A stretch of 63,999 nucleotides of DNA, filler included, from an uncultured bacterium (GCA_964637655.1; 17 parts of 17 records of this genome joined end to end with filler, not necessarily neighbours in it), one strand, 5' to 3'. Positions 2,760 through 60,602 are shown, counted from the first letter of the whole stretch. Program-made: numbers and translations. Notes: generated from the sequence alone by a model not told the origin.

Positions 2760-3878
2760 ATGACGAACGAGAGCGACGCGGCGGCACCGGGCCTGCTGGG
2801 CGGCCTGCTGCGCAACAGCGATCTGCTGCTGGCGCTGGGCATCATCCTCGTGCTGGCGATGATGGTGCTCCCGGTCTGGACCTGGACGCTGAACCTGGGG
2901 ATCGCGGCGAGCGTCACCGTCGCCCTGCTCATCCTGCTCACCGTGGTCTACAGCCCGCGGGCGGTCGACTTCGCCGTCTTCCCCTCGGTGCTGCTCATGA
3001 CCACCGCGCTGCGCCTGGCGCTCAACGTCGCCTCGACGCGCAAGATCCTGCTCGAGGGGAAGAGCGGGGTCGAGGGGATCATCACCGCCTTCGGGGATTT
3101 CGTCGTCGGCGGCAACTACGTCGTCGGCATCATCATCTTCCTCGTGCTGGTCATTATCCAGATCATGGTCATCACCAAGGGGGCGACCCGCATCGCCGAG
3201 GTGGCGGCCCGCTTCACCCTCGACGCCATGCCGCTCAAGCAGATGGCCATCGACGGCGAGGTGCAGCGCGGGGACATCACGCAGGAGGAGGCGGCGCAGA
3301 AGCGGCTCGACATCCAGCGCGAGTCGAACTTCTACGGGGCGATGGACGGCGCCGCCAAGTTCGTGCAGGGTGATGTCTACGCCGGGCTGATCATTGCCGG
3401 CGTCAATATCGCCGGCGGGCTGATCATCGGCATGTGGATGCGCGGCGAGGGGCTGGTCGAGGCGCTGCAGACCTACACGCTGCTGACCATCGGTGACGGG
3501 CTGGCGGCGCAGATCCCGTCGCTGCTCATCGCCGTGGCGGCCGGCCTCATCGTCACCCGTTCGACCAGCGACGAGAACCTCTCGCGCGACCTGACCAGGG
3601 AGATGCTGCGCCAGCCCAAGGCGCTCTATATCGCGGGGAGCGTGCTGTTCGTGCTCGGCATCGTGCCGGGGATGCCGCTGCTGCCGCTCTGGGCGCTGGC
3701 CGGATTCCTCGGCGCGCTCGCCCGCTCGATCAACCTGCGCACGGCGGACGCGGCGGCGGCGGCGGCGCGCGCGGCGGCGGCGCCCGAACCGGCGGCCAAA
3801 CCGCCGGAGAAACCGCTGGCGCTGCTGCAGGTCGACCCGCTCGAAATCGTGATCGGCTACGGGCAGAAGGCCCTGGTC
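2760..3878 (+). CDS. flhA: Flagellar export protein FlhA, N-terminal part (cut by contig end)
   Basis: RLALNVASTR, ITKGATRIAEVAARFTLDAMP.KQMAID, FYGAMDGAAKFV. Confidence 0.95.
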
Positions 3879-3978
3879 NNNNNNNNNNNNNNNNNNNNNN
3901 NNNNNNNNNNNNNNNNNNNNNNTTAATTAATTAANNNNNNNNNNNNNNNNNNNNNNNNNNNNNNNNNNNNNNNNNNNN
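3879..3978. other. Artificial contig linker N44-TTAATTAATTAA-N44. It also occurs at 7816-7915, 11707-11806, 15557-15656, 19404-19503, 23248-23347, 27066-27165, 30869-30968, 34660-34759, 38431-38530, 42191-42290, 45935-46034, 49632-49731, 53284-53383, 56924-57023 and 60503-60602
   Basis: Identical 100-nt spacer with stops in all frames; the complete contigs shrink monotonically from 3837 to 3479 nt. Confidence 0.98.
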
Positions 3979-4342: not shown

Positions 4343-5194
4343 TCACACCCCGCGGGGGCCGTCGGGCTGCAGGTCGCTGCCGGTCACCTGCCTGACCGCC
4401 TGCGCGAAGGCCGCGTCGTCGTCCTGCACCACCCCATCGGCACGCAGCCGCGCGGCGAAGCGGGCGATATTCAGCCCGTCGCGCATCGACAGTTCCTGCT
4501 CGCGCCGGTGCGCGCGCTGCAGCAAATCCACCACCCTGCCGATGAGTTCATCGCCCGGGCCGGGCAACTGCCCGCGGATGATGCGGAATTCCTCCTCGCG
4601 CGAGGGATAGTCCATGCTGATGCCCGGCTGCAGCCGCGAGATGATGTATTCCGGCACCTCGAAGGTCGAGGCGTCCTCGTTCATGGTGACACAGACGCGA
4701 AAGGCGGGGTCGGCCGTGATCTCCACGCCCGCCACCAGCGAGAACACGCTGCGCCGCATATCGAGCAGCGGCGCCACCGACGCCCAGCTCTTCTCGCTCA
4801 TGCGGTTGCCCTCGTCGAGCAGGCAGATGCCGCCACGCAACATGGCCGACACCAGCGGCGAGGCGACATAGCGGATTTTCCCGCTGTCAGCGATGACCGG
4901 CGAGATGATGAGGTCCTCGGGTTTGGTGTCCACGGTGCACTGGAATATGTAGAGGGCCTGCTGGCGCGCATGCGCGGCGGCGATGGCGAGCGAGGTCTTG
5001 CCCACGCCCGGCCGACCGAGGATGCGCGGCTGCATCGGCGGGTCGTCCCCATCCTCGCGCCACGCGGCCAGTAATTGTTCCAGCGGCTCGCGCATCCCCA
5101 CCCACTCCACCTTCAACTGCGGCGGATCAACGAGGTGGATTTCAACTCCCCTGATGCTGACGGTTTCGCCTATGGTCTTCCCGGTCCGGCTCAT
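4343..5194 (-). CDS. MoxR/CbbQ-NorQ-like AAA+ ATPase
   Basis: Walker A GRPGVGKT, Walker B CLLDEGNR, sensor motif TMN. Confidence 0.85.
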   Translation of the reverse strand: MSRTGKTIGETVSIRGVEIHLVDPPQLKVEWVGMREPLEQLLAAWREDGDDPPMQPRILGRPGVGKTSLAIAAAHARQQALYIFQCTVDTKPEDLIISPVIADSGKIRYVASPLVSAMLRGGICLLDEGNRMSEKSWASVAPLLDMRRSVFSLVAGVEITADPAFRVCVTMNEDASTFEVPEYIISRLQPGISMDYPSREEEFRIIRGQLPGPGDELIGRVVDLLQRAHRREQELSMRDGLNIARFAARLRADGVVQDDDAAFAQAVRQVTGSDLQPDGPRGV

Positions 5195-5283
5195 AACGCC
5201 CCCTTACCCGACGATGCGAGTATGGCATACCACCTGCCGCGGCAGCAAGCCGTTGACGCTACCGTCGCACATCAGGCGATCTG

Positions 5284-6489
5284 TCAGGTAGCGCCTTCGA
5301 GGAACCCCGCCATGAACAGCGGACGGTGCAGGCCGGTATTCAGCGCTGCGTGACTGAGAATCAGTTTTTTGCTGCTGCGCATGCCCTTGAACTGCTCGCG
5401 TCCTTTGCCCTTACCGCCGATTTCAATGACCATATCCTCGTCGGCATGGCGGATCAGGTAATCAGGGGTCTTCCCGCCGCGCGTGGTTTTGAGGTAGGTG
5501 ATGGTCAGTCCGGCCAGGCGTGCGGTCTCGACAAAAAAATCCTCGCGCAGTTCACCGAGCACCCCGGCATACTCACGGAAGAGCAACCGGAACGGCAGGC
5601 ACATAAGGACCTTGGGCTCCTTGAGCACGTTAGTCCCCGACGGGAAAATCATGTTGATGACATAGGCCTGATGCAGGAGTGAGAGGTATTGCTCGGCCTT
5701 GTATTTCGTGATGCCGGTGTTTTTCGCCAGTGAAGTGAAATTTATGCCATCCACCGGCGAGCGGCCGATAAACTCGAGGCACTTCCTGATGAGCCCCGTT
5801 TCTTCCGTATACAGGCGGGCCACGGCCGGGATATCATGTTCGATGATTTTGGCGAGGATGTTCCCGCAGAGCGTGAGGGGTTCCGGTTCTTCGAGCGCAA
5901 ACGGCATGAGTCCGCCCTGGAGATACTCCGCGAAACGGTGTTCAGTGCGCAGATGTTCCGGACTGAACCGGCCGGCGATTATGTCGTCAAGCGTCAGCGC
6001 CGCCGGGGCGATGCCGTCGCGGAACAACAGATATTCGCGGAAGGAAAACGGCGGGAGTTGCAGCAGTTTGACCCGCCGGGAGAGGTCGGTAGCGGTCGCC
6101 GTCAATGACAGCGCCATCGAACTGGTGAAGACCACCGCAAGGTCAAGAAAGTCGTAGATTTTTTTCAGTGTCGCAGCATAGTCCGGAGCGTGATGGATTT
6201 CATCAATCAGCAGCGTGCGGATGCCATAGCGCGTGACCAGCGACTCGGCCACAGCGAACAGCTCCACCTCGCGCATGGTGTCCAGCGAGAGGTAGAAGGA
6301 ATGCTCTGTCGTCAGCGCGAGTTGGCGCAGGATGGTTGACTTCCCCACGCCACGCGGACCGATTATGCCGCAAAAATGGCGGCCTTTTTCCGACTGGAGC
6401 CGGTTGAACAATTCCCGTTTCCGCCAGGCCTTGCGCTTTGTTTCCGTTCGCGCCATCTCGTCCAGGCGGAATAATTCATGCAGTACCAT
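5284..6489 (-). CDS. AAA_14 / DUF4143 family ATP-binding protein
   Basis: GPRGVGKS, LLIDEIH, FTSS, LPPFSFREYL; C-terminal PD-(D/E)xK-like PDYLI..IEIG; RBS AGGAGG. Confidence 0.85.
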   Translation of the reverse strand: MVLHELFRLDEMARTETKRKAWRKRELFNRLQSEKGRHFCGIIGPRGVGKSTILRQLALTTEHSFYLSLDTMREVELFAVAESLVTRYGIRTLLIDEIHHAPDYAATLKKIYDFLDLAVVFTSSMALSLTATATDLSRRVKLLQLPPFSFREYLLFRDGIAPAALTLDDIIAGRFSPEHLRTEHRFAEYLQGGLMPFALEEPEPLTLCGNILAKIIEHDIPAVARLYTEETGLIRKCLEFIGRSPVDGINFTSLAKNTGITKYKAEQYLSLLHQAYVINMIFPSGTNVLKEPKVLMCLPFRLLFREYAGVLGELREDFFVETARLAGLTITYLKTTRGGKTPDYLIRHADEDMVIEIGGKGKGREQFKGMRSSKKLILSHAALNTGLHRPLFMAGFLEGAT

Positions 6490-6690
6490 ATCGTTCCTCC
6501 TGTAAAACTATTATACAAGATGATATGCATATTGTCAAATGATTTATCAATATGCAGTTTAGTTTGCTGAGGTTTTTCATGGGCAACATCCAGCATAACA
6601 ACATGTTACGGCTGCGTTAGGATGCTATGTATACTTTTACAACCAGGGGTAAAAGCTGGTGGCCGGGCGTGCTGTCCACACAGCGCGCCG

Positions 6691-7662
6691 TTATCTGCCG
6701 CTTTTCTTCAGGCAGAATTCCTTCTCGTTGCAGTTGAGGTCGCAGGTCAGGCCGTGATGCTCGTACATCGCGCAGAGGCGATGCTTGTAGATGTTCACCG
6801 GCGCGAGACGCTGCACCTGCCCGGCAAACTCGTGCAGAAAGCCGCTGTCGAGATGCGCTTCCGTGTCGCGATAGTCGCCCTGCGGCACGGGGTGGCCGGC
6901 CGCCTGCAGATTCTGCACGATGGCAGGCGCCAGTTTCAACCCGCCGACCACCAGTTCCTGCGCTCCGTCGGTCACCTCACGCAGCAGCGGCTGCGCGGCC
7001 TGCGCGTCGTACCATTCCGGCACCAGCGGCTTGCAGAGCGGCACCGCGTGGATGCCCGCGTCGCGGCAGATGCGCAGGAAGGCGACCGCGGCCGGCAGGT
7101 CGCCGTCGAGCCGCGGATTGAGCGACCCGACACTGACAAAGACGGTCAGGCGGCAGTCCCGCGCGAGGTCGCGCAGCCAGGCGGGCACATAGGACGCGCG
7201 CCGGGTGGGGCGCACGGTAAGCATGACCAGATGCTGACTGGCCTCGCGCTGCACGAAGCGCAGCAGGCGGCGCAGGCGGGCATGCCCGCGCGCGTCCTCG
7301 GCCAGCAGCAGGGCGTCGGTGGTGTCGAACAGCGAGAGGACCAGCGGCTTGCGCTGGATGAGGACGAGGCGCACGTTGCCCAGCGAAAGTGCGGGCACCG
7401 CAGGCACACTGCGCGCATCCGTACCGGTGGGCAGGGCCTGATACCAGGTATCCTTCTCCTGCACGCAGTAGGCGCAGCCGCGCGTGCAGCCGGCCGGCAG
7501 GTTGACTGACAGCCGCCGTTTCTTGGCGTCATGCATGAGCGGCGCGAACCGCGGCGGCGCCTCGCGGTACTCGAGGTAGACACCCTGCTGCTCGAGTCGC
7601 GCCATCTGCTCGGGCATGGTCAGCGGCGGCGGGCCGTCGTCACTGCAGAAACCCTTGCACAT
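6691..7662 (-). CDS. Radical SAM-like protein (possibly SPL-like)
   Basis: CxxxCxxC (GCTRGCAYC); Cys-rich C-terminus; GGAGGT RBS before ATG 7662. Confidence 0.6.
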   Translation of the reverse strand: MCKGFCSDDGPPPLTMPEQMARLEQQGVYLEYREAPPRFAPLMHDAKKRRLSVNLPAGCTRGCAYCVQEKDTWYQALPTGTDARSVPAVPALSLGNVRLVLIQRKPLVLSLFDTTDALLLAEDARGHARLRRLLRFVQREASQHLVMLTVRPTRRASYVPAWLRDLARDCRLTVFVSVGSLNPRLDGDLPAAVAFLRICRDAGIHAVPLCKPLVPEWYDAQAAQPLLREVTDGAQELVVGGLKLAPAIVQNLQAAGHPVPQGDYRDTEAHLDSGFLHEFAGQVQRLAPVNIYKHRLCAMYEHHGLTCDLNCNEKEFCLKKSGR

Positions 7663-7663
7663 G

Positions 7664-7815
7664 TCAGGCACCTCCCTCCGTGCGGAACAGGTGCACGGTT
7701 CCGTCCGCGCTGCCGACCGCATACCGTCCGTCGCCGCCGGCGGCGGCGCACCACGCTTCGCCCGGCAGGGCATAGGCCGCGTCGGGCAGCGTCGTCTCCG
7801 CCGTCGCGCGCCCGG
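7664..7815 (-). CDS. C-terminal fragment of a WD40-like protein
   Basis: Reads ...AWCAAAGGDGRYAVGSADGTVHLFRTEGGA*, resembling a WD40 repeat end. Confidence 0.45.
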
Positions 7816-7915
7816 NNNNNNNNNNNNNNNNNNNNNNNNNNNNNNNNNNNNNNNNNNNNTTAATTAATTAANNNNNNNNNNNNNNNNNNNNNNNNNNNNN
7901 NNNNNNNNNNNNNNN

Positions 7916-8450
7916 CAAGACCTTCCGCCGTCCCGGCACCTTCTACGGCGACGGGGTGGTCGCGCACGTTGCCTTCGCCCACCCGTTCTGCGACCGCCTG
8001 CGGCGGGCGGCAGTGGCGGCGGCGAAGGCGGAAAAGATTGCCGTGACGGCCGGGGGCACCTACGTCTGCATGGAGGGTCCGCAGTTCTCGACCCGCGCGG
8101 AGTCGAACCTGCACCGCGCCTGGGGCGCGTCACTCATCGGCATGACCTGCATGCCCGAGGCAAAACTGGCGCGCGAGGCGGAGATGTGCTACGCGGTCAT
8201 CGCCCTGGTGACGGATTTCGACTGCTGGAAAGAGGACGAGGAGCATGTTACCGCGGACGCGGTGGTGGCGACGATGACGCACAACGTGCAGGCGGCGAAG
8301 CGCATGCTGCCGCGCCTCATCGCCGCACTCGACAGTGCTGATTGCGCCTGCCGGCACGCGCTGGCCGGGGCGATTATGTCCGACCCGAAGAAGGTGCCGC
8401 CCCTGACGCGGAAAAAGCTGGCCCTGCTGGCGGGAACGTACCTGCAGTAG
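7916..8450 (+). CDS. mtnP: S-methyl-5'-thioadenosine phosphorylase (5' partial)
   Basis: GTYVCMEGPQFSTRAES, IGMT..PEAKLAREAE.CY, VTDFDCW. Confidence 0.92.
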
Positions 8451-8492
8451 CGACGACAACTTGCCGCGCACGGCGCGGACGGAGGAAACGCG

Positions 8493-9905
8493 ATGAAGAG
8501 GGGAATGATGGTACTGGTGGCGGCGCTGGCCGCGGGGCTGATGCTGCTGGGCGGCTGCAGTTGCGGCGGCGGTGACACGGAAACCAGCGGCACGGCAACG
8601 GGCGGCGGGGTGGCGCAGCTGCAGGGGAGTCCGAGTTTCACGGTGACGGCCTGCGATGCGGATGGCGACAACTACAACGTGACCGTCAACAACACACTGG
8701 TGGTCAGCGGCATTACCTGCGATAACGGCGCGGTGGAGATGCCCGCCTACAAGCCGCGCACGGGCAGCCCGAAGCCGTATCTCGAGGCGGCCGGCCCGGA
8801 CGGCGAAACGCTGCTCAGTGACATCGAGGCGGCAGTCACGGCGGTGGCGGGCGGCGGTTCCATCCCGGCTCCGGCGGGCGAGATTGCTCCGCTCGCATAC
8901 GGCGGCATTGAAATCACGGTCATCCAGCCGCGTGACAACAGCGGCAGCCGCTCCGGCAGCGGCAGCAGCCGGCAGTCGCGCGAGCGCAACGACCGGGCGC
9001 AGGCGCGTGACGCGGAAGGCGGCAGCAGCAGCACGCCGCGTGCGCCCACCATTCTCGCCACGCTGGTGCTCAATGACAACCTGAAAATCACCGGCATCCG
9101 CCTCATGGCTGACCGCAACGCGGACAAGACGTTCTTTGTGTCATGGCCGAGCCGGCAGGTCAACCGCAAGTATATCCCATCGGTGACCATCAGCGACGAC
9201 ACACTGCTGGTCAAAATCGAGGAGGAACTGCTCAAGGCCTACGCCCTGCAGGAGGGGCTGGAACCGGATGCGGTCAAACTGTCGCAGCGCGGCAGCAGCA
9301 GCAGCGGCAGCGGCGACGGCGCGGGGACGGAAGGCGGCCGCCCGGCCGGCGACGTGTTCATCAGTGCCATTGCCAAGGACGGCAATAACTATACCGCCAC
9401 GCTGTGGAACGAGATCGTTGTCAGCGGGATCAGCATCGGTGACGGGGTGAAGTTCCCCGGCAGCGAGAGCCGCCCGCGCGACGGTGGCGAGTCGCGCTTC
9501 TTCCCGCATGTCAAGGCGCCGTTCCGCACGGCGGCGACGGCAGTCGAACGCCTGCAGACGGCCATCGAGGCGTTCGCGGAGGACGGGACGTTCGACAAGG
9601 GCACGGCGGCTGACCTGGAAGTCACCAACGTCTACATCAATCGCAGTTTCGCCGATGTCACCTTCAACAATGCCGTGGCCATCGGCGGGTTCCATATCAG
9701 CGGGCGCGGGACGGAGGCGACGGTCTCGCTGCCGTCGGTGAAGCAGGGAAGCAATTTTGTGCCGGTCATCAGTTTCCGCACGGAGTCGGTCTGGCAGCAG
9801 GTGCAGGAACAGATTCTCGACAAGTACCGCGCCACGGCACAGCGCAGCGGCAGCGGTGCGCGGTCCGGCGGCAGCCGCAATAGTGACCGCAGCTACGACG
9901 AATAA
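8493..9905 (+). CDS. Lipoprotein with multiple SpoVG-like domains
   Basis: Signal peptide and lipobox LLGG-C; two clear SpoVG-like segments (ATLVLNDNLKITGIRL..FVSWPSR..IEEELLKAY; FADVTFNNAVAIGGFHI..VSLPS..VQEQILDKY) plus two degenerate ones. Confidence 0.7.
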   Translation: MKRGMMVLVAALAAGLMLLGGCSCGGGDTETSGTATGGGVAQLQGSPSFTVTACDADGDNYNVTVNNTLVVSGITCDNGAVEMPAYKPRTGSPKPYLEAAGPDGETLLSDIEAAVTAVAGGGSIPAPAGEIAPLAYGGIEITVIQPRDNSGSRSGSGSSRQSRERNDRAQARDAEGGSSSTPRAPTILATLVLNDNLKITGIRLMADRNADKTFFVSWPSRQVNRKYIPSVTISDDTLLVKIEEELLKAYALQEGLEPDAVKLSQRGSSSSGSGDGAGTEGGRPAGDVFISAIAKDGNNYTATLWNEIVVSGISIGDGVKFPGSESRPRDGGESRFFPHVKAPFRTAATAVERLQTAIEAFAEDGTFDKGTAADLEVTNVYINRSFADVTFNNAVAIGGFHISGRGTEATVSLPSVKQGSNFVPVISFRTESVWQQVQEQILDKYRATAQRSGSGARSGGSRNSDRSYDE

Positions 9906-9929
9906 AAAAACGCAGGGAAAGGGATACGC

Positions 9930-10913
9930 ATGCGACTGGGACGGAATTTCACCAATCTGCTGGAGTACGATTACATGCCGGAGGCGGACAAGGAGCGTTT
10001 CCGTGCCGGGACGCTGACGGTGCCCGATATGGACGCCACCTACCAGACGAAGTTCAAGGAGGACATCCGGCGGCAGGTGGACGCGGCCATCGCGTGCGGC
10101 ATGACCCATGTCGAACTCGACGGGGGGATTCCCAACCCGTACCTCGGCATGCCGGCGGCGCTGCGGGCGGAACTGGCGGCCTACGCGAAGGCGAAGGATA
10201 TCACCCTGTCGCTGCACCTGCCCTACACCTTCACCGCCATCGGCACCTGCGGGTTCCAGGAGGAGGACCGGGTGGCGGCCTGCGCCATGCTCAAGCACTA
10301 CCTTGATTTCGCCGCCGACCTCGGCTGCGTCAGCGCGGTGATGCATCCCGGCTCCATTCCCTATTACCAGGCGACGGGTCGCTACCTCGAGATCAGTGAC
10401 GAGCATCTCTTCCGCTCGCTGGTCGAACTGGGGCGCTACGCCAACGGCAAACAGATCGCCCTGCACCTCGAAAACAACACCAAGTGGGACCCGACGCATG
10501 TGCGGCCCGAGGAGTCGCTGCCGCTGCTTGACCGCGTGCGCGCGGAAGGAGTCGAGATCTACTACTGTTTCGACCTGGCGCACACCTTCACCCTCGTGGC
10601 GAAAACGGCCGACATCCCCTATCCGCCCGACGCGGCGTACGAGGCCATCCCGGCGCACTACTACCACGAGATCCACATCGGTGACTTCGTGCCGGAAAAG
10701 GTCCTCTTTCATCCCCCGCTGCACCAGGATGCCGGTCTGCTCAAAGCCGATGACTGGAAACGCATCTTCCGTATTTTCCGGAAGAAGGGGGTCAAAACCG
10801 TGGTGATCGAGACCGCGGTGCGGGAGAAGGACGACCTGATCAACGGCCGGCAGATCATGCTTGACGAGTCGCGCTACATCAAGGCGATTTTCGACAGCGT
10901 CATGGCGGAATAG
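9930..10913 (+). CDS. Xylose-isomerase/AP-endonuclease-2-like TIM-barrel protein
   Basis: LSLHLP, VMHPG, LHLENN, CFDLAH, EIHIGD, VVIET metal-ligand pattern. Confidence 0.85.
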   Translation: MRLGRNFTNLLEYDYMPEADKERFRAGTLTVPDMDATYQTKFKEDIRRQVDAAIACGMTHVELDGGIPNPYLGMPAALRAELAAYAKAKDITLSLHLPYTFTAIGTCGFQEEDRVAACAMLKHYLDFAADLGCVSAVMHPGSIPYYQATGRYLEISDEHLFRSLVELGRYANGKQIALHLENNTKWDPTHVRPEESLPLLDRVRAEGVEIYYCFDLAHTFTLVAKTADIPYPPDAAYEAIPAHYYHEIHIGDFVPEKVLFHPPLHQDAGLLKADDWKRIFRIFRKKGVKTVVIETAVREKDDLINGRQIMLDESRYIKAIFDSVMAE

Positions 10914-10923
10914 GAGAACACCC

Positions 10924-11580
10924 GTGAGCAAACCTTTCCAGGTATTCCTGCTGGGCACCCCGGGGTGCGGCAAGTCGGAAATCTATCGCCGGCTCGAACA
11001 GCGCCTCAAGGACGAGGGTATCGCGTCGCGGGTGCTGCGTATCGACGATTTCCCCAAACTGCACGCCTGCTTTGTTGCGGATGACGAGGCGGAGGCGGCG
11101 GGCAAACCGCGCACCTGGTCGCGCAAGTCGGGCGAACACGGCTGGCTCGTCACCAACCCGGCGGTGTGGGATAAACTGCTGACCATGGTCAACGAGGATG
11201 TGCTGCGCGAGCGGGCGGCGGACACGGCGGTGTTTATCGAGTTTGCCCGTCCCGACATGGTGCGCTCCATCCGTTCCTGTTTCAGCGAAGAGGTGCGGCA
11301 GTCGTCGCTGCTCCTGTATATCTTCTGTCCGTTTGCCATCTGCTGGGAGCGCAACGTGCGCCGGCACGAGGCGGCGGTGGCGGCGGGCGGTGACGACCAT
11401 CTCGTCTCGCGTGAGGAAATGGAAGCAACCTACCGTACCGATGACCACGACGACCTGCACACCCTCGGCATCCCCTTTGTCGTCGTGGACAACCATCTTG
11501 ACGGAACGGCGCAGCTCGAATTCGAAATCGGCAAGATTATGGCCGTGCTGAAACAGCAGCAGGCGGCACGGCAGGCGTAG
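10924..11580 (+). CDS. P-loop small-molecule/nucleotide kinase-like protein
   Basis: LLGTPGCGKS; lid-like CWERNVRR; GTG start after AGGAG. Confidence 0.7.
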   Translation: MSKPFQVFLLGTPGCGKSEIYRRLEQRLKDEGIASRVLRIDDFPKLHACFVADDEAEAAGKPRTWSRKSGEHGWLVTNPAVWDKLLTMVNEDVLRERAADTAVFIEFARPDMVRSIRSCFSEEVRQSSLLLYIFCPFAICWERNVRRHEAAVAAGGDDHLVSREEMEATYRTDDHDDLHTLGIPFVVVDNHLDGTAQLEFEIGKIMAVLKQQQAARQA

Positions 11581-11586
11581 CGCGTC

Positions 11587-11706
11587 ATGGGCGGGTTCCA
11601 GCGCAAGCGGCTCGGGGATATCCTTGTCGACGCGGGGATTATCACCCCCGAGCAGCTGACTGAGGCGCTCGAACGGCAGCGCGAGACGGGGGCGCGGCTC
11701 GGGCAG
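11587..11706 (+). CDS. MshEN-domain protein, probably a PilB/GspE ATPase (3' truncated)
   Basis: RKRLGDILVDAGIITPEQLTEALERQRETGARLG is the c-di-GMP-binding MshEN motif. Confidence 0.75.
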
Positions 11707-11910
11707 NNNNNNNNNNNNNNNNNNNNNNNNNNNNNNNNNNNNNNNNNNNNTTAATTAATTAANNNNNNNNNNNNNNNNNNNNNNNNNNNNNNNNNNNNNN
11801 NNNNNNGACCAACGCCCCGGGGACGGTGGCGCCCGAGCAGGTGCGCGACCTGCACCTGCGGGTGCGTGTGCCGGAAGCGCCGGCGGCGCCGGCGGGCGGG
11901 CAGGCGTAGC

Positions 11911-14572: not shown

Positions 14573-15246
14573 AACTGTCAGTGATCATCCCGACGTACAA
14601 CGAGGAGCAGACCATCGAGGAGATCGTGCGCCGCGTGCGCGCGGTGCCGCTGGAGAAGGAGCTCATCGCGGTCAACGACGCGTCGACCGACCGCTCCGGC
14701 GCCATCCTCGATTCCCTCGCGGCGCCCGATTTCAAGGTGCTGCACCACGAGCGCAATCAGGGGAAGGGGGCGGCCATCCGCACCGGGCTGACCGCGGTGA
14801 CGGGTGACATCGTCGTCATCCAGGACGCCGACCTCGAGTACGACCCGGGCGAGTTCCCGAAACTGATCGAGCCGATTATCAAGGGGCATGCGGACGTGGT
14901 TTACGGGTCGCGCTTTCTCGGCTCGCACAGCGCGATGTTCTTCTGGCATTACGTCGGCAACCGCTTCCTCTCGCTGATGACCAACATCCTCTACAATACC
15001 GTGATCACCGACATGGAAACCTGCTACAAGGCGTTCCGCGCCCCGGTGATCACCGGCATCACCATCAAGGCCAACCGCTTTGATTTCGAACCGGAGATCA
15101 CCGCGAAGGTGCTCAAGCAGGGGTGTCGCGTCTTCGAGGTGCCCATCGTCTACATCGGGCGCGATTTCTCGGCGGGGAAGAAAATCACCTGGCGCGACGG
15201 GTTTGCCGCGCTCTGGACCCTGCTCAAGTACCGGGTGGTGAACTGA
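14569..15246 (+). CDS. Glycosyltransferase family 2 (DPM-synthase-like)
   Basis: IIPTYNE, NQGKGAA, IQDADLEYDP, TDMETCYK. Confidence 0.92.
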   Translation: MKLSVIIPTYNEEQTIEEIVRRVRAVPLEKELIAVNDASTDRSGAILDSLAAPDFKVLHHERNQGKGAAIRTGLTAVTGDIVVIQDADLEYDPGEFPKLIEPIIKGHADVVYGSRFLGSHSAMFFWHYVGNRFLSLMTNILYNTVITDMETCYKAFRAPVITGITIKANRFDFEPEITAKVLKQGCRVFEVPIVYIGRDFSAGKKITWRDGFAALWTLLKYRVVN

Positions 15247-15247
15247 C

Positions 15248-15556
15248 ATGGCCCGCTACCTGGTTACCGGCGGCGCCGGGTTCATCGGGTCGAACATCGT
15301 CGACGAACTGCTGCGGCGCGGCGAGTCCGTTACGGTGCTCGACAACTTCACCACCGGCAGCGTGGCCAACCTGCGCGCGGTCGAGGACCGCATCCGCGTG
15401 GTGGCGGGCGACATCTGCGACCTGTCGCTGGTCAAGCAGCTGGCGCGCGAGGCGGACTATATCCTGCACCAGGCGGCGCTGCCGTCGGTGCCGCGCTCGG
15501 TGGCCGACCCGCTCTCCACCAACCGCCACAACGTCGAGGGGTCGCTCAACGTGCTC
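15248..15556 (+). CDS. NAD-dependent epimerase/dehydratase (3' truncated)
   Basis: VTGGAGFIGS; HQAALPSVPRSV.DP. Confidence 0.9.
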
Positions 15557-15656
15557 NNNNNNNNNNNNNNNNNNNNNNNNNNNNNNNNNNNNNNNNNNNN
15601 TTAATTAATTAANNNNNNNNNNNNNNNNNNNNNNNNNNNNNNNNNNNNNNNNNNNN

Positions 15657-16034
15657 CTGGCCGGGAGCGGCACTGGCGTGCGGCACCTGCCGGCTGACGA
15701 TGACGGCAGTGCGCTTGCCGCGGCGCTGTTCGACCCGCTGCCCGCCGGGGCGGAAGCGATGCCGCAGACGGTTGTGGCGCTGCGCCGGCTCTGTGCGGCG
15801 CTTGCCCTGCGGGCCGCACGGGCGACCCCGCCGCTGGTTATCGGGCAGCTGCAGCAGGCGCTGGCGGCCGACCCGCTGCTCGCGGTGGCGCATCTGCTGG
15901 CGGCGGAACAGTGGCTCGCCTGTGACGAAACCGGCGAGGCGACGGCCGCTGTCGCGCGGGCTGCCGCGCTGGCCCCGGGTGCCGCCGGCGTGCTCGCCCT
16001 GCAGGCGAAGCTTTCCCGCCGCCCCGCCCGGTAG
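15657..16034 (+). CDS. C-terminal fragment of a TPR-like protein
   Basis: LQQALAADP and ARAAALAP helical repeats. Confidence 0.4.
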   Translation: MAGSGTGVRHLPADDDGSALAAALFDPLPAGAEAMPQTVVALRRLCAALALRAARATPPLVIGQLQQALAADPLLAVAHLLAAEQWLACDETGEATAAVARAAALAPGAAGVLALQAKLSRRPAR

Positions 16035-16043
16035 CAGGGGAGC

Positions 16044-16305
16044 AGGGGGCCATACTGACACATTGACACATATTATCAACAATTCTATCCACAATCGGCA
16101 ATAGAAGGGGGCCATACTAGCACATTGACACATGTTATCCACAATTCTATCCACAATCGGCAAATTGCACATCTGTTCGATAAATAATACGATATACAAC
16201 AGGCGAGCGGTATGGGTATGTTTAAATGTGTCAATAATGTGACAGACCGCGATTTATGTGGATACTTTGTGGATAACATGTGTCAATGTGTCAGTATGGC
16301 CCCCT
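16044..16305. repeat. AT-rich cluster: two direct 62-bp-period repeats plus one inverted copy, containing six DnaA-box-like 9-mers
   Basis: AGGGGGCCATACT..CACATTGACACAT..TTATC(C/A)ACAATTCTATCCACAATCGGCAA at 16044 and 16106; inverted copy at about 16256-16305. Confidence 0.85.
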
Positions 16306-19503: not shown

Positions 19504-20966
19504 GTGCGCTCCGCCACCCGCTGCTCGAGTTGCGCGCGCGCTTCCTCGAGCGCGGTCAGTGCCTCGCGCCGTTCCTGCTGCGCGCGCAGCGCCATGATAC
19601 CGTGCGCGAGGGTCTCGCCCAGTTCGGCGAGCAGCGCGATTTCCGCCGCATCGAAGGCGCATTCTTCTCCTGTGCCCAGCGTGAACGCCCCGATAACGTC
19701 GCCATGCGCCGCCAGCGGCACGGCGCAGAGCGCGGCGATACCGTGCGCCTGCAGCGCCGCCTGCCACGCTGCGTCGAGGTGCCGGCATTCCGGCGCGCGC
19801 AGCACCACCGCCTCACCCGAGCGGATGGCGCGCCCGGCCGCACAGCAGCCCGCGGGACTGTCACTCCACGACAGGGGCAGCCCTTCGAGCATCCGGCTGG
19901 ACGGGCCGGCGACCGCTGCCTTGCGGATGGTGCGTTCCGTGTCGGGCATGGCAAGCCCCACCCACGCGAGCCGGTAACCGCCCTCGTCGGCCGCCAGCGC
20001 GCAGACGCGGTCGAGCAGTTTCTGCTCCTCCTCCGCGTGCACTACCACCGTGCTGCAGCGCGACTGCAGGCGCAGGGCGCGATTCGCCGCGGACAGATGC
20101 GCGGTAGCGCGGCGCACCTGCCGGCGCAACACGTAGAGGCCGAACAGCAGCGTGGCAAGCAACAACAGCACGGTGAGAATCGCGCCGTCGAGCCATTCCG
20201 GGCGTACCTCTTCCACCATCCCGCCGCCGAAGTAACGGTTGATGGTCCGGTAGTAGAACGAATGCTGCTGCGCCTTGAGTGCGCGCAGGTGCCGGTCAAT
20301 GGCGGGCAGCAGCACGGCCGTGCGCCGGCCGTTTTTCGGGAAGGCGAAGTGCAGGCGCGACGGCCCGAAGACGATACTCGTCGCCTCGACCGCAAACTCG
20401 CGCTCGTTCCCCATGCCGAAGAGGCGGTTGACGACGCCAGCATCCGCCTGCCCGGACGCGAGCAGCGTGAAGACGCCGGCCAGCGAATCGGTCTCGATGA
20501 ACGTGCAGGTGATGCCGAAGCGCGACGCGAGATTGTAGATGCCGTCTTCGCCGCTGGTGAGAATGTTGCCGCGCATCACCGCCACGCGTTTCCCGTTGAG
20601 TTCGAGCAGCGACTCGGGGCGCCTCACCCCGCGCGGGACATAGACCGTCCCCCAGTTGACGAGAACATTTTCTTCACCGAAGGTATACTGCTCCGCACGC
20701 TCACGCGACCAGGCGACATCGGGCATGACATCGATCTCGCCCCGCTCGAGGCGCTGCAGGCATTCCGTCCAGGTGCCGGGCACCCAGACCACCTGCCAAC
20801 CCTCCTGCTGCGCGATGTGCATGACCAGATCGGGAAAGAGCCCGGCGTACTCCCCGTCCTGCGTAAAGAGTTTCGGCTTGTTCTCGTAGAAGCCGACGCG
20901 CACCACTTCGGCGGCAGCAGCGGAGGCCAGCAGCAGCGTCAGCAGCGCGGCTGCCAGCAGGCGCAT
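19504..20966 (-). CDS. Sensor protein: periplasmic SBP (family 3) + TM + GAF, probably a histidine kinase (3' truncated)
   Basis: Signal peptide; VRVGFYENKP..LERGEIDV; GAF-like YRLAWVG..AVPL; LEQRVAER coiled coil. Confidence 0.8.
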
Positions 20967-22234
20967 CAGAACTGCGCCCCCAGCGCCAGCGCGAAGATAT
21001 CGTCGTCAGGTTCGGCGGCGGGGTTGAGACGGTACTGACCGGCAATGAGTGCCGGGTCGTAGGCGTTGAGGAAGGAGTAATCGCTCATCACCCGGCTGTA
21101 CTCCGCACGCAGTTGCGTGGCGTTGGCGAACAGGTAGCCGATGGCGAACGACACCTTGCGTTCGCAGGAATAGCCGGCGAGCAGTTCAGCCTCGAAGCTT
21201 TTCGGGTCGATGACGCTGTAGCGCACCCCGCATTCCCAGCCGGGAAGTCCGTGCCAGATGGCCTTGACGATATACTCGTTGACCGTTACCGCCGTCAACT
21301 GCGTGCGGGCGGGATTGCCGACCAGCCCGGCATCGCCCTCGAGCGCCATCTTGTCGTGACGCACCGTGGCGTATTCCGCCGAGAGACGGAGCGCCTGCGC
21401 GATATCCCAGGCGCCGTGGATATCGCGCGCGCTGAACCGCGAGCGCCCGACCGCCACCCCGTCGAGCGTATTGGTGTTGCGCATGTCACCCGCAACATAG
21501 CCGCCGCCGATAAAGGCACCGCTGACGACATTCCAGCGCAGGTTGGCGTTGAACTGCTTGGCGTCGTCGATATCGGGCGTCACCGAGGCGTTGTTCGCCA
21601 TCGACGCGCTGTCCGCCACTGTGCGCGCCACGCCATTCCCCGCGTACAGCGAATAGTCGAACATGCCGTCGGCGACTTTGCCCGAGAGCATGATGCCGAT
21701 ATCGGTCTTGTTGTTGAGCAGCGACCGCGCATCCTGCGCGTACTCACTGACGAAACACTCGCAGCCGCAGGCATCGGGGCGGCGCTCACCCTCGAGCCCG
21801 AAGGGGCGCGAGAACATCCCGATGCGCACCCCCGCCTGCGGCAGCGGCGTCCACGCGGCGTAGAGCAGTCGCGCGGTGATGCCTGCGGTGCCGTCACGGT
21901 AGCGGAAACAGCCGTAGGCCTTGAGCGTATCGGTCAGCGGACAGTCGGCGACGAGGCGGAAGCCGTAGCCCGCCTGCGCCGGTGTCTGGCGATTCCCGCC
22001 ATAACGCCCGGCCGACAGCAGGAATGTTTTGCGCATCGCGGTCGGGGCCGGCACGCGCCACGACGCGCCCGTCACCTGCACGCCCGCATCCTGCCACCCG
22101 GTGGCCGTGGCAAGTTGATAGGCGTCGTCACCTGCCTGCTGCTGCGCCCAGTAGGTTATCCACAGCCCGCCCGACAGGTTGATTTTTGCCGTGGCCGGCG
22201 CGGACAGCAGGCATAAAAAAAACGCCGTCAGCAT
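20966..22234 (-). CDS. Putative outer-membrane beta-barrel porin (phosphate porin O/P-like); start uncertain
   Basis: Signal-like N-terminus; RIGMFSRPFGLE; alternating aromatic strands; C-terminal Phe. Confidence 0.6.
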   Translation of the reverse strand: MLTAFFLCLLSAPATAKINLSGGLWITYWAQQQAGDDAYQLATATGWQDAGVQVTGASWRVPAPTAMRKTFLLSAGRYGGNRQTPAQAGYGFRLVADCPLTDTLKAYGCFRYRDGTAGITARLLYAAWTPLPQAGVRIGMFSRPFGLEGERRPDACGCECFVSEYAQDARSLLNNKTDIGIMLSGKVADGMFDYSLYAGNGVARTVADSASMANNASVTPDIDDAKQFNANLRWNVVSGAFIGGGYVAGDMRNTNTLDGVAVGRSRFSARDIHGAWDIAQALRLSAEYATVRHDKMALEGDAGLVGNPARTQLTAVTVNEYIVKAIWHGLPGWECGVRYSVIDPKSFEAELLAGYSCERKVSFAIGYLFANATQLRAEYSRVMSDYSFLNAYDPALIAGQYRLNPAAEPDDDIFALALGAQF

Positions 22235-22414
22235 GACGGCATTGCTGGTGGCGTTATGTAGAATTTCCGGAAGCGGGCGCCCGGTGAGCGGGTCAGCCGC
22301 CGTTGCCAGTGCGGTACGTTGTCGCTGCCATTCCCTCGGCATCAACGTCCTCGCTTTTCCGCGACTGCTGCCGGCATGATAGCAAACAGTTCCCCGTAGT
22401 GTCAATAACCGAGC

Positions 22415-23347: not shown

Positions 23348-25944
23348 GCAATTCTTCACCCAGCCAGTGTCCGTGTGCTGCCAGGGGCATCGAGCAGCTG
23401 CTGCGCGGCAGCATCGCGCAGGTGCGCGACCTGTTCACCGCGCTGGCCGCGGCGCTGCCGGGCGAGGCGGCGCGCTGCACGGCGGCGGCGCAGTACACGG
23501 CTGCCGTGGAGGAGTTTCTCGGCAACCTGCCGCAGTACGTGGCGCTGGAGCGCGAGACGGGAACGGTGCGCGTGCTGCGTGCCATGCTCGTCGAGGAGGC
23601 GAGCGGGGCGCCGGTGGCGGGCATCGCGGTGCGCTTCCGGCTCGAGCGCGGCGACGGCGAACTGGCGGTCAACGGCATTCCCTGCGGGGCGCAGGCGGAG
23701 GTGGTGAGCGGCGACGACGGCGGGGTGACGGTGGAACTGCGCCTCCCCGCGCCCGACGCGCGCTACGAGGTGTTCGCCACGCATGACGACATGGTGCTGC
23801 TGCCGTGGCGCGACAGCGCGACGCTCTACGAACTGAGCGGGGGGGCCGACGACACCGGCAGATATCAGCCCGACCACGTGTCGAGCGCGACGGTGAGCGA
23901 CGAGGCGGACGACGATGACGACGAGGGGGGGACGCACGCGGGCGACCTGGCGGTCGGCATGGCCTGCCGGCTGATCGAGCGCGACATCAGGAACCTGGCG
24001 GCGGGAGATGTGCGTCTCGTGCGCATCGACGACCACCACCCCTACACGCCCGAGATTCTTGCCACCCTGCAGCGGCTGCAGGGCGAGGGGCTGCTGGAGA
24101 AGGTCAATCTCTGCTCGCTGCCGCGCGGGGAGGAACAGCCGAAAGAGCAGCAGCAGTGCGGGGCCGACCTGATCTACGCGAACTTCGTGAAGGGGCAGGC
24201 GGGTGACAACCCCGGGCTGGCGCTGCTGTGCGAGCTGGCGCATGTGCAGGACCTGCATATCCGCGTCGACGACCTCGCCATCGACCTGTCGAAACTGCTC
24301 GGGTCCAAGGTGGACAAGATCGCCATGACGCGCGCGCTGATGCGCGTGCGCACGGTCGACGATTTGCAAACGGTGATGGCGCGCGAAGGGTGGGCGCAGC
24401 GCGTGGCGGAGTACGAGGCGGCACTGGAAAAAATCTGCCCGCGGCTCGACGCGACGCTGTCGTGCATCCAGTTCCTCATCCCGCCGCCCGACGGCAACTA
24501 CGGGAAGGACCTCGGCTGGAAGTCGGTGCTCAAGCCCTTCGTCGGCATGGGTAAGGACGAGGCGGCCAAACAGCGCGAACTCAAAAAACTCTACGCGGCG
24601 AAACCGGAACACAGCGTGCGCATCTTCACCGCGCTCGCCCCGTTCTGCGACGGCAAGAAGGGTGAACCGCAGATCAACGTCGCCTCGGTGATCAACTACC
24701 TCAAGCCGCGCTACAGCCCCGACTATTTTTTCTACCATTACGGCGGCTTCCTGATGACGACGCGGCGGGTCAACGGCGAGAGTCACAAAATCGACCTCAA
24801 CCGCGTGGTCTCGACCATCGGCAGCAAGGCGGACGGCGGCCATGCCGAGGCGGCCTCGGGCCGCCCGTCGAGCAACCCCGCCTTCCCGCTGCACCGGTTC
24901 GAAGACGTGAAGGACAAGAACTACCAGGAGTACCTCTGCTACCTCGCGGCGAAGCTGCAGCCGCTGACGGGGCTCGAACTCTACCGTGTCGGCCCGGTGG
25001 CCGCGGAAAAGCTCCCGGAGGAGACACGGCAGGCGGTGATGCGCGCGGCGCGCTGCTGCTCCCTGCTGACGGTCAAGGGCAAAACGGTGCTCTTCGTGCT
25101 GCACCAGTATCCCGCGACGGGTGAGCCGCCGACGGGGCTGCCGCTGGTGCGCGACTACCTGACGCGCGTCATCCCCTGCGACTACCTCGTCTATGCCTAC
25201 GGGGTCAACCAGTGGGTCTTCATCAACCACGACGACGCCGACCAGGCGCTGGCGCTGGACGAACTGGCGCGCGCGCTGGGGACGTACCGCGACGGCGGCA
25301 GCCGCGTGGCGGCCGACTGCCAGCCGAAATACCATCCCGATTTCCCGTTCCGCGACTTCAAGTATGCCAATGCCAAGGCGTTCGCGCTGCTGGCGGGCTA
25401 CTTCGCGGCGTGCGTGCAGCGGCACTACCCGGAGGAAAAGGTGGTGCTGTCGGTGCCGGCAGTTGCCTTCGACGCGCAGCTGCAGCCGATTGCGGCGCGC
25501 GCGGAGAAGAACCTCGCCTTCATCGACTTCCACACCGCGGCGGGGGTGTCGCCCCGGCGGTCGTTCCGCGTCTTCTGCGCGCTGGCCCCGTTCACCGACC
25601 GCGCCAAGGGTGAGCCCGACCTCGGGGCGCTGACCGCGGCCTCCTCTTTGCGCAGCACGGGGAAGGATTTCGACTTCTTTCTCTACGCGGAGGGGAGCTA
25701 TCGCGGCACTTTAGTGGCGATGAAGAATGAACCGGCGCTCGATATGGCGGCCATCCTGCAGCGTATCGAGGCATCCATTCGTGTGCACCACGGCCCGGTC
25801 ATCCACTTCGCGCCCACCGTGCCGGCAGCCATGGGGAAGGTCAATTACAAGAATTTCCACGACTACCTCAAATGGCTGGGGGCGGCCATCGGCGAAGCGG
25901 GCGGGTTTGGCCTGCAGACGGTGACGGCACTCGACCGGCGCTGA
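23348..25944 (+). CDS. Large DHH-family phosphoesterase-like protein with three tandem DHHA1-like domains (5' partial)
   Basis: IDDHHP, CGADLIY, HVQDL; DGGHAEAASG; internal repeats of about 115 aa. Confidence 0.6.
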
Positions 25945-28093: not shown

Positions 28094-28882
28094 TCATGCG
28101 GCGCCCGGTCCTCCCGGAGCAAGGCGGTTGACGAGTTGCAAACGCTTCTGCCAGTGCTCAGCCACCACCACCTGCTGCCGGAAATGCGCGGATACCCACT
28201 TGGCGCGCGCCACCACCCGCCCCTCCTCCTCGACCTTGCAGTAAAGTCCCTCCATGCGACCGCTCACATCGGTCTCCTGCGCGGCCTGCGCCGCATCCAC
28301 GCCGGCAGCACGGCAGGCCAGCGCGAACGCGGGGCGCGGGTCGGCACTGCAGCAGCGTGACTGCCCGTGCCAGCACAGCAGTTCGTCAGTCGAGTTGACC
28401 GTACCGGCAAAGAGCAGCGGCACGCTCTGCAGCGGTAGCCCGGCAAGCAGTTCCCGCCGGCGCGGTGTATCGAGGAAGTGCTCCGTGCCGGTGTCGAGCA
28501 CGTCGAATTCCAGCAGGTAGCCGGGAAGCATATCGTAGAACACCGTATGCTTGGCATACAGCCATTCGCCATACATGATGTAGCGACTGCCGAGCGCCCG
28601 CCACAGCGCATCGCGCCATTGCGCTGCCCACGCCTTGAGCCGGGCGAACTGCCGCTCGTTGGGCCCGCCGGTCAGGTAATGTCCGCGACTCTGCAGGCGC
28701 AGTGCGCCGTCACGGCCGAAACTGACCGCGCAGTTTGCGCCATCCACCTTTTCCTCGATGACGATATGCCGCCCCAGCAGTTCCCCGGCCGGGATGAGTG
28801 TGAGGTCCTCATCCCCGTCTTGCAGGCGCGAGCCCACGATATGCGGCGTGCGCGGATACTTGCGCAGGTCTTCACCGGCCAT
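28094..28882 (-). CDS. RNA ligase family (ATP-dependent nucleotidyltransferase)
   Basis: KYPRTPHI; motif I EEKVDGAN; LQSRGH; YGEW; FDV; motif IV EGLYCK; RAKWV. Confidence 0.85.
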   Translation of the reverse strand: MAGEDLRKYPRTPHIVGSRLQDGDEDLTLIPAGELLGRHIVIEEKVDGANCAVSFGRDGALRLQSRGHYLTGGPNERQFARLKAWAAQWRDALWRALGSRYIMYGEWLYAKHTVFYDMLPGYLLEFDVLDTGTEHFLDTPRRRELLAGLPLQSVPLLFAGTVNSTDELLCWHGQSRCCSADPRPAFALACRAAGVDAAQAAQETDVSGRMEGLYCKVEEEGRVVARAKWVSAHFRQQVVVAEHWQKRLQLVNRLAPGGPGAA

Positions 28883-33900: not shown

Positions 33901-34154
33901 CTGTCGAACTGCCAGTACGCCTCGACGCCATTGACGATGGTGTCGGTGTTGACCCACAGTTCGAGGGCAAAGACCTCGCCGGGATGCCGCACGATGTCGC
34001 GCGAGATGTTCGCCCCGTTGTAGGCGGGATTGGACGGATCGATCAGGCGGAGCGTGGTGACCGCGGCAGCCGGGAAGGCGACACCGGTGACGATGCCTGC
34101 CGCAACGGCAAACAGCAGTATCCGCCTCAGGACCGTGTGTCGGTTCCGCTGCAA
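30969..34154 (-). CDS. Large secreted protein with a clostripain (peptidase C11) domain, an N-terminal cohesin-like domain and beta-rich repeats (3' truncated)
   Basis: Signal peptide; WNYLVYLDADNNLE, EANMGD, VLWDHGGGW (His), FDVCL (Cys), ASE..EPGDG. Confidence 0.85.
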
Positions 34155-60502: not shown

Positions 60503-60602
60503 NNNNNNNNNNNNNNNNNNNNNNNNNNNNNNNNNNNNNNNNNNNNTTAATTAATTAANNNNNNNNNNNNNNNNNNNNNNNNNNNNNNNNNNNNNNNNNN
60601 NN

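Follow-up and report, generated by a model that had tools for sequence, protein, structure and literature searches.

An exported, tandem SpoVG-like lipoprotein in an uncultured bacterium and its possible role in binding nucleic acids at the cell surface

Introduction

To our knowledge, SpoVG is known only as a small cytoplasmic regulator that binds DNA and RNA. What, then, would SpoVG-like domains do on the outside of a cell? This question is raised by a gene in a 63,999-nucleotide stretch of joined contigs from an uncultured bacterium (GCA_964637655.1), hereafter the window. The gene (8493..9905, + strand) encodes a protein of 470 residues that carries a lipoprotein signal followed by four SpoVG-like domains in the order A1-B1-A2-B2.

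We tentatively favor the view that this is a lipid-tethered, two-module SpoVG-like protein that acts as a multivalent binder of nucleic acids or similar polyanions at the cell surface. More specifically, the protein would be exported by its lipoprotein signal, and a lipid on Cys22 would tether it either to the cell membrane, on its outer face, or to an envelope membrane, on the periplasmic side. Its body would consist of two copies of an A-B module, in which a degenerate A domain packs on a well-preserved B domain and thereby mimics the SpoVG dimer. These modules would hang on flexible, arginine-containing Ser/Gly segments and bind, in a multivalent way and with low specificity, nucleic acid (DNA or RNA outside the cell or in the periplasm) or a similar polyanion. 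The bound polymer could then be held at the cell surface for uptake or breakdown.

A conserved lipobox at the N-terminus

A Shine-Dalgarno-like GGAGG, recognized by sequence (8481..8485, + strand), lies 7 nt 5' of the ATG. The N-terminus of the protein begins with a lysine- and arginine-containing n-region, which is followed by a hydrophobic core and by the lipobox L-L-G-G-C. The lipobox ends in Cys22, the residue predicted to be lipidated, and the signal peptide as a whole is encoded at 8493..8558 (+ strand). Residues 12-22 match a PROSITE-style lipoprotein pattern. The LLGG-C signal proposed in a first-pass annotation of the window was thus confirmed by pattern.

A word-indexed search of 5.8 billion proteins at E ≤ 0.001 retrieved four sequences including the query, the others being 76, 53 and 41% identical to it; these orthologues all come from metagenome assemblies. 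The lipobox pattern is matched in all four, as well as in the more distant relatives P0006 and P0008. Cys22, Cys24 and Cys54 are likewise shared by all four, and equivalents of Cys24 and Cys54 also occur in P0006 and P0007. A disulfide between Cys24 and Cys54 is possible from this conservation and would fit an extracytoplasmic site. Together, the conserved lipobox and the invariant Cys24 and Cys54 strongly support export and the envelope anchoring that had been suggested. A tblastn search of 50,697 phage records gave no match, and a search of the ESM Atlas with the lipoprotein returned nothing usable.

Kinship of the four domains to SpoVG

In the whole protein, the Pfam family PF04026 (SpoVG) matched residues 384-446 with 37 bits against a cut-off of 29.6. 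When the blocks were scanned singly, B1 scored 18.1 bits (E 0.003) and B2 23.9 bits, and no SpoVG match was obtained for A1 or A2. Scans of the lipoprotein against Pfam, NCBIfam, PADLOC and PHROGs identified no family besides SpoVG. Foldseek comparison of the full AlphaFold2 model with the PDB placed SpoVG chains (2ia9, 2i9x, 2i9z) at ranks 1-6 and 8, with target TM-scores of 0.49-0.72 and probabilities of 0.93-1.00. Furthermore, the single meaningful match in a viral structure library was a phage SpoVG (probability 0.99).

Plain sequence searches of the PDB with B2, the B1 core or a whole-family profile did not retrieve SpoVG. A bridging profile built from the B domains and single-domain relatives matched 2i9z, 2i9x and 2ia9 with E-values of 2.1e-23 to 9.5e-22. 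The B domains are SpoVG domains; their alignment with SpoVG runs over the full length and takes in the conserved Pro-Ser loop as well as the C-terminal helix.

For the A domains, 41 members from 32 relatives were collected with a hidden Markov model (HMM) of the four orthologues' A domains and compared with 19 single-domain SpoVG proteins. The profile-profile alignment (hhalign) reached a probability of 96.7% (E 3.7e-10) over 68 columns that extend from strand 1 to the helix, and the reversed control gave 0.9%; an earlier, less strict comparison had given 98.4%. The conserved proline is aligned in 192 of 197 A and B domains. On the basis of this comparison, the A domains appear to be homologous to SpoVG but degenerate. 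The first-pass annotation had described blocks 2 and 4 as full SpoVG domains and blocks 1 and 3 as degenerate, and this description holds, by Pfam and Foldseek for the B domains and by hhalign for the A domains.

A duplicated two-domain unit with disordered segments

The AlphaFold2 model, calculated from the four-sequence alignment, has a mean predicted local distance difference test score (pLDDT) of 69.2 and a predicted TM-score of 0.46. Confident folded units span residues 46-122, 133-146 together with 183-262, 286-366, and 373-449 (approximate boundaries). Low confidence is confined to segments 1-37, 146-181, 266-286, 326-348 and 451-470.

All features of the protein lie on the + strand. 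Domain A1 (residues 46-122; 8628..8858) is a degenerate SpoVG-like domain of four strands and one helix, with a pLDDT of 87-95 in the full model. The first strand of B1 (residues 133-146; 8889..8930) was placed by an AlphaFold2 strand at 136-144 and by alignment to single-domain SpoVG proteins. It is followed by a disordered insertion rich in Ser, Gly and Arg (residues 147-182; 8931..9038; pLDDT below 50 over 146-181) and then by the B1 core (residues 183-262; 9039..9278), a SpoVG domain with the motif W-P-S-R-Q supported by Pfam, hhalign and alignment to single-domain SpoVG. A disordered Ser/Gly-rich linker (residues 263-285; 9279..9347; pLDDT below 50 over 266-286) separates the two A-B units. 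The second unit comprises the degenerate domain A2 (residues 286-366; 9348..9590), whose loop at 322-344 is conserved and modelled with low confidence, and B2 (residues 373-449; 9609..9839), the best-preserved SpoVG domain, which bears P-S-V-K and contains the Pfam match. The protein ends in a disordered Ser/Gly/Arg-rich tail with an acidic end (residues 450-470; 9840..9902). Ser, Gly, Arg and Asn together make up a fraction of 0.65-0.71 of the segments 147-182, 263-285 and 450-470.

Ser/Gly/Arg-rich stretches had been taken for linkers between the blocks. Segments of this composition do exist, and 263-285 is a linker, but 147-182 is an insertion within B1, because AlphaFold2 predicts the strand at 136-144 ahead of it, because, once the insertion is deleted, residues 133-146 line up with strand 1 of single-domain SpoVG proteins, and because in P0006, which has no such insertion, the equivalent of strand 133-146 is contiguous with the rest of B1. 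The insertion sits in the loop between strands 1 and 2 and measures 20-63 residues across the orthologues.

Within-family profile comparisons of the four units, made with hhalign on the family alignment, paired the first unit with the third (A1 and A2; probability 96.4%, E 1.2e-9) and the second with the fourth (B1 and B2; 95.7%, E 9.9e-9). The other pairings scored far lower: 32% (E 4.9e-4) for first and fourth, 9.5% (E 3.4e-3) for first and second, 0.3% (E 0.22) for second and third, and 1.1% (E 0.047) for third and fourth. A1-B1-A2-B2 is therefore a duplicated two-domain unit, and the four similar blocks noticed earlier correspond to four folded units in the model. Tandem Repeats Finder showed no recent DNA duplication in 8400-10000; the only repeats it reported there were short ones of GCA/GGC-type codons within the Ser/Gly-rich segments.

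Predicted pairing of the A and B domains

Complex prediction of A1 (44-125) with B1 (131-264) gave an ipSAE of 0.79, compared to 0.00 for the best control. The mark applied to this score is reached by 116 of 157 solved complexes and by 2 of 215 mismatched pairs; these counts apply only roughly here, where our own alignment was used. Three prediction runs had at least 98% of their contacts in common, with a partner pLDDT of at least 89. The predicted contacts are reciprocal: the B1 strand-turn 192-201 meets A1 94-104, and B1 228-235 meets A1 64-73, while the proline-containing loops of B1 (219/221) and A1 (84/86) touch each other. In being reciprocal, these predicted contacts resemble those of a dimer.

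Two further observations fit the pairing of A with B. The pLDDT of A1 is 87-95 in the full model and 70.6 when the domain is modelled alone, and exported relatives have two domains (21 proteins) or four (12), with one case of three and none of a single domain. These results support a predicted pseudo-dimer in which A1 packs on B1 as a single-chain imitation of the SpoVG dimer. With an ipSAE of 0.79, a lipobox and the conserved Cys24 and Cys54, the earlier interpretation stands as far as an envelope-anchored single chain of SpoVG-like pairs is concerned; the predicted pseudo-two-fold contacts support the single-chain idea.

A wider family of exported SpoVG-like proteins

A profile search of 1.84 billion cluster representatives identified 92 relatives at E ≤ 0.001, of which 12 fell at or below 1e-10 and 4 at or below 1e-30. 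Pfam SpoVG was matched by 85 of the 90 relatives scanned, two very long ones having been left out; DUF3849 was also matched by 2 of the 90. We scored an N-terminus as signal-like when a lipobox pattern or a hydrophobic 12-residue stretch preceded the first domain, which is a crude rule. By this rule, 34 of the 92 relatives combine a signal-like N-terminus with SpoVG-like domains, 10 with a lipobox and 24 with a plain signal. The figure of 34 is probably a lower bound, as several two-domain proteins scored as lacking a signal appear truncated or borderline.

The number of domains differs between the two groups. Signal-like relatives have two (21), three (1) or four (12) domains, whereas those without a signal have one (21), two (32), three (1) or four (2); none of the 21 single-domain relatives carries a signal. 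Type A domains number 39 in signal-bearing relatives and 4 in relatives without a signal. Many of the latter are nevertheless tandem proteins, 165-390 residues long, among them P0014 and P0066 with four domains and P0018, P0046, P0055, P0063, P0085 and P0091 with two, so tandem SpoVG is not limited to exported forms.

Like the lipoprotein, the exported relatives begin with a signal peptide or lipobox, and their domains come in the order A-B or A-B-A-B. Examples are RLD17026.1 (Caldisericota), MGM0568761.1 and MDR2708575.1 (Elusimicrobiota) and MBP7654813.1 (Dependentiae). They differ from it in that most have a plain signal (24 of 34) and two domains (21 of 34), and in that they lack the long insertion in B1. 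The named members come from metagenome-assembled genomes (MAGs) of Caldisericota, Elusimicrobiota and Candidatus Dependentiae and are annotated as 'hypothetical protein' or 'septation protein SpoVG family protein'. Our literature search, whose coverage leaves out most subscription journals, found no paper on exported or tandem SpoVG proteins. Exported SpoVG-like proteins, whose existence as a group is strongly supported by these counts, are apparently an undescribed family of uncultured bacteria from several candidate phyla.

Two signal-bearing proteins, P0013 (3965 residues, 18 stretches) and P0027 (1053 residues, 8 stretches), also matched the N-terminal part of the family profile, at profile positions 41-82 and 22-70. 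The A and B models recognized no SpoVG-like domain in either of them, and the matches may reflect a repeated hairpin motif or may be compositional.

The lipoprotein differs from SpoVG itself (PF04026; 2ia9, 2i9x, 2i9z) in more than its location. The B domains share sequence and fold with SpoVG and the A domains are its distant homologues, but SpoVG is a cytoplasmic protein of about 100 residues with one domain, while the lipoprotein has 470 residues, four domains, a signal and disordered Ser/Gly/Arg segments. Moreover, half of its domains lack the hairpin that bears the DNA-binding doublet in SpoVG, and none of the four has the doublet in full.

The basic doublet and the nature of the ligand

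SpoVG proteins bind DNA and RNA (PMC3688583, PMC4959528, PMC11086051). In the SpoVG of S. aureus (K50-R51) and of B. burgdorferi (R53-R54), each residue of a basic doublet is essential for DNA binding, and nucleic-acid binding is the only activity ascribed to the fold (PMC3688583). We fixed the doublet column, which follows the Pro-Ser, by alignment to 2i9z and with the help of PMC3688583. The four domains of the window protein read P-A-Y-K (A1), P-S-R-Q (B1), P-G-S-E (A2) and P-S-V-K (B2) at this point. A single basic residue is kept in three of them (A1, B1 and B2) and none in A2.

Comparison with the other three orthologues revealed that the doublet is best preserved in B1, where R-Q in the window protein corresponds to R-R, K-K and K-K, and a full doublet is thus present in three of the four orthologues. 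At B2, V-K corresponds to V-K, V-K and E-K. At A1, Y-K corresponds to Y-K and F-E, and in the third orthologue the conserved proline is not aligned, while at A2 the residues S-E correspond to S-E, S-E and S-K. In the wider family, 48 of 62 exported-like B domains retain one basic residue at this position, and 4 of 39 exported-like A domains have a full doublet. Within the lipoprotein, a mildly basic character is seen in the disordered insertion and in the C-terminal tail.

Several results weigh against the proposed surface binder of nucleic acids. Concerning its structural basis, the Foldseek E-values of the full model are weak (0.045-0.2, none ≤ 0.001), a search with A1 modelled alone lists SpoVG no higher than ranks 32 and 43 (E about 2), behind short, spurious flavoenzyme alignments, and an A-only profile found no SpoVG among PDB sequences. 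SpoVG dimers are present in the PDB, and the passing complex prediction may reflect likeness to them and would then be no independent evidence. Concerning the ligand, a full doublet is found in none of the four domains of the window protein, and in 8 of 62 exported-like B domains compared to 28 of 92 B domains without a signal. The mature protein is acidic, with a net charge of -12 and an isoelectric point (pI) of 4.9, and the A domains have pI values of 4.1-5.2. The lipoprotein is 54% identical to its orthologue at the one related locus described below (L001, 10001-11485), while its neighbours are 83-95% identical; such divergence, most pronounced in the disordered insertion (21% identity), suits a surface-exposed protein but also fits a surface protein of a quite different role. 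Finally, the gene order around the lipoprotein was seen elsewhere only in L001, a close relative.

Much of this evidence favors an envelope protein that has turned its SpoVG-like modules to some other ligand, such as a cell-wall or surface polymer or another envelope protein, with the chain serving as a scaffold or spacer. We regard this as nearly as likely as a nucleic-acid or polyanion ligand. It would account for the incomplete doublets and their rarity among exported forms, for the acidic mature protein, for a rate of divergence often seen in surface proteins and for the loss of the doublet hairpin from the A domains; in addition, no nucleic-acid-handling gene of the cluster has an exported product. 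On the other hand, none of the domain searches indicated another ligand, the fold has no other known activity in the source cited above, and most exported-like B domains retain one basic residue at the doublet.

On balance, the lipoprotein seems an unlikely candidate for canonical, sequence-specific DNA binding. Weaker binding of nucleic acid or another polyanion, which we infer by descent from SpoVG, would be the best lead on its ligand.

The gene neighbourhood and a possible link to a pilus motor

The window joins 17 contigs of 3.4-3.9 kb each, arranged in decreasing order of size. They are separated by spacers that consist of 44 N, TTAATTAATTAA and another 44 N, and that lie at 3879-3978, 7816-7915, 11707-11806 and then every 3.6-3.9 kb or so until 60503-60602. 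Any neighbourhood that spans a spacer is an artefact, because the contigs joined there are not neighbours. The sole genuine context of the lipoprotein gene is the third contig (7916..11706, 3791 bp), flanked by the spacers at 7816-7915 and 11707-11806; a radical-SAM-like gene to its left and a 7TM-HD gene to its right belong to other contigs. On the third contig, mtnP lacks its 5' part, and of the MshEN gene only the first 40 codons are present. The remaining parts of mtnP and pilB, and the additional neighbours seen in L001, are absent from the other contigs of the window.

The genes of this contig had been described as co-oriented and closely spaced, and this is the case: all lie on the + strand, with intergenic gaps of 42, 24, 10 and 6 nt, and no promoter-like or terminator-like site was found on that strand between them. 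The first is the 3' part of mtnP (7917..8450, + strand), coding for 177 residues of an S-methyl-5'-thioadenosine phosphorylase (Pfam PNP_UDP_1, E 8e-25). NCBIfam MTAP models rank best for this fragment; its truncation keeps the TIGR01694 score at 165.9, below the cut-off of 274.85. The full-length L001 orthologue reaches 330.6 on the same model, and its residues 115-291 share 95% identity with the fragment.

The gene following the lipoprotein (9930..10913, + strand) encodes a xylose-isomerase-like TIM barrel of 327 residues with no signal peptide (Pfam AP_endonuc_2, E 1.3e-23). Its NCBIfam match to CbiR is below threshold (26.9 bits, cut-off 105), as is that of the L001 copy to deoxyribonuclease IV (Nfo). 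Its best PDB match is TTHB071 (E 0.004), and its relatives are annotated 'sugar phosphate isomerase/epimerase'. The nearest named relative of the barrel, 72% identical, comes from Candidatus Hydrogenedentota.

The next gene (10924..11580, + strand) encodes a P-loop NTPase or kinase-like protein of 218 residues, with a GTG start and GGAG upstream. Its start is the GTG at 10924 rather than 10861, and the protein is 83% identical to a 218-residue L001 protein from residue 1 onward. Pfam gave weak matches to AAA_33, AAA_18 and Zeta_toxin, all below their cut-offs, and its look-alikes in the Atlas are AAA_18/AAA_33 clusters. A reading of the locus as a defence system was dropped, PADLOC and PHROGs having given one weak, sub-threshold match, to the P-loop protein only.

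The last gene (11587..11706, + strand) comprises the first 40 codons of a PilB/GspE-type ATPase, cut by the end of the contig. The assignment of this gene to the MshEN (PilB/GspE-like) group in the first-pass annotation is borne out by 88% identity to the start of a 603-residue L001 protein (MshEN 81.3 bits, T2SSE 453 bits) and by an exact match, at residues 8-31 in both proteins, to the 24-residue MshEN motif for cyclic di-GMP (c-di-GMP), as given in PMC5013675. Pfam found no MshEN match in the 40-residue piece, which is too short. The L001 ATPase scores 66.5 against a cut-off of 38 on the NCBIfam c-di-GMP motif model, while its second motif deviates from the strict pattern. It resembles the PilB, GspE and MshE ATPases in its domains and falls just under two equivalog cut-offs (631 vs 675.65 for PilB, 626 vs 630.25 for GspE).

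None of the neighbouring products has an N-terminal signal, and the lipoprotein is the sole exported product of the array; the neighbours' products therefore cannot touch it. A scan of genome contigs for this neighbourhood gave 85 pattern matches and one confirmed locus, L001. There, the order is leuA, leuC, PNP, recJ, a DHH protein, mtnP, lipoprotein, TIM barrel, P-loop protein and two PilB/GspE genes. Upstream of mtnP, at 4728-9076, lie the purine-nucleoside phosphorylase, RecJ and the second DHH-family protein, and at 15064-16278 a second PilB/GspE paralogue, without the strict c-di-GMP motif, is truncated by the contig end. The order of the five-gene neighbourhood is thus kept in L001, but this is only one other genome and a close relative. 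As the neighbours are 83-95% identical (mtnP 95%, TIM barrel 85%, P-loop protein 83%, PilB start 88%), the shared order says little. A third case can be surmised from P0004 (41% identical to the lipoprotein) and the TIM barrel P0222 (77% identical), which may be adjacent; both come from the same source, with a contig of 2582 bp that would fit just those two genes.

This setting suggests a more specific role, in which the lipoprotein would, like ComEA, be the dedicated receptor for DNA taken up through a type IV pilus or a competence-like system, and would be co-expressed with the ATPase and with nucleotide-salvage enzymes. We consider it quite unlikely. The operon-like array does end in a PilB/GspE ATPase with a c-di-GMP motif, the L001 array adds PNP, RecJ, a DHH phosphoesterase, MtnP and a second PilB/GspE, and the TIM barrel is faintly similar to the phosphodiesterases CbiR and Nfo. 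ComEA is a periplasmic DNA binder able to drive uptake (PMC3879209). The lipoprotein may act in a similar way: it, too, would reside outside the cytoplasm, may bind nucleic acid and has a PilB-type ATPase gene in its neighbourhood. However, the lipoprotein has no helix-hairpin-helix and no match to the ComEA family in Pfam or NCBIfam, and no gene for a pilin, PilC, PilQ, ComEC or ComEA was found on the contig or among the 44 open reading frames (ORFs) of the window scanned with Pfam. The adjacency is confirmed in a single, closely related genome, and in a Caldiserica MAG a TIM-barrel relative (DRI36_00315, 48% identical) is encoded on another contig than an exported SpoVG protein of ABAB type (DRI36_04820). 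In addition, RecJ, PNP and MtnP are housekeeping genes, and the TIM-barrel and P-loop proteins lack a secure functional assignment. Cooperation of the proposed surface binder with the pilus ATPase and the nucleoside-salvage genes is thus conceivable at most.

That the hydrophobic N-terminus fails to act as a signal, leaving the protein in the cytoplasm as a multi-domain SpoVG regulator, is very improbable: signal-less proteins with two, three or four SpoVG domains do exist among the relatives, but the n-region, core and lipobox cysteine are conserved in the four orthologues and in distant members while their surroundings diverge, the second and third cysteines are conserved as well, a good ribosome-binding site fixes the start codon, and type A domains are concentrated in signal-bearing relatives.

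Other features of the window

FlhA is split between two contigs of the window. One part (2760-3878, + strand) covers profile positions 1-344 and runs off contig 1, and the other (48661-49629, - strand) covers positions 346-653 and begins at the edge of contig 13; in the genome, contigs 1 and 13 are probably adjacent. Genes for FliP, FliR, FlhB and FlgK occur in the window as well, and the organism is therefore flagellated.

Four long ORFs of 364-865 residues with high third-position GC have no Pfam family at E ≤ 1e-5 (20966-22405, - strand; 23350-25944, 39272-40426 and 57024-58115, + strand). The window further encodes an RNA-ligase-family protein of 262 residues (28094-28882, - strand) and a protein of 1062 residues with a clostripain (C11) peptidase domain (30969-34154, - strand). 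A SecD/SecF-like protein (53560-55137, + strand) has five near-full-length matches among the 5.8 billion proteins, 43-76% identical; further matches cover only 32-59% and are spread over many diderm phyla. Judging from such sequence comparisons, the host lineage seems deep and thinly sampled.

Implications for the family

The SpoVG fold itself is known. What appears to be new is its location outside the cytoplasm, the tandem, lipid-anchored architecture and the wider family to which the protein belongs. A broader reading, which we regard as unlikely, would see the exported A-B modules, each a single-chain SpoVG dimer, as widespread, undescribed nucleic-acid receptors of uncultured phyla (Elusimicrobiota, Caldisericota, Dependentiae and the present lineage). 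They would capture environmental DNA or RNA at the surface as functional analogues of ComEA with an unrelated fold, and would here work together with nucleoside salvage and with a pilus motor under c-di-GMP control.

Many of these candidate-phylum lineages depend on scavenging, and a nucleic-acid receptor could therefore matter to them. If the lipoprotein and its exported relatives do bind nucleic acids, they would form a novel type of cell-surface receptor for DNA or RNA from the environment. If they do not, the family would be a case of a nucleic-acid-binding fold re-used in an envelope role.

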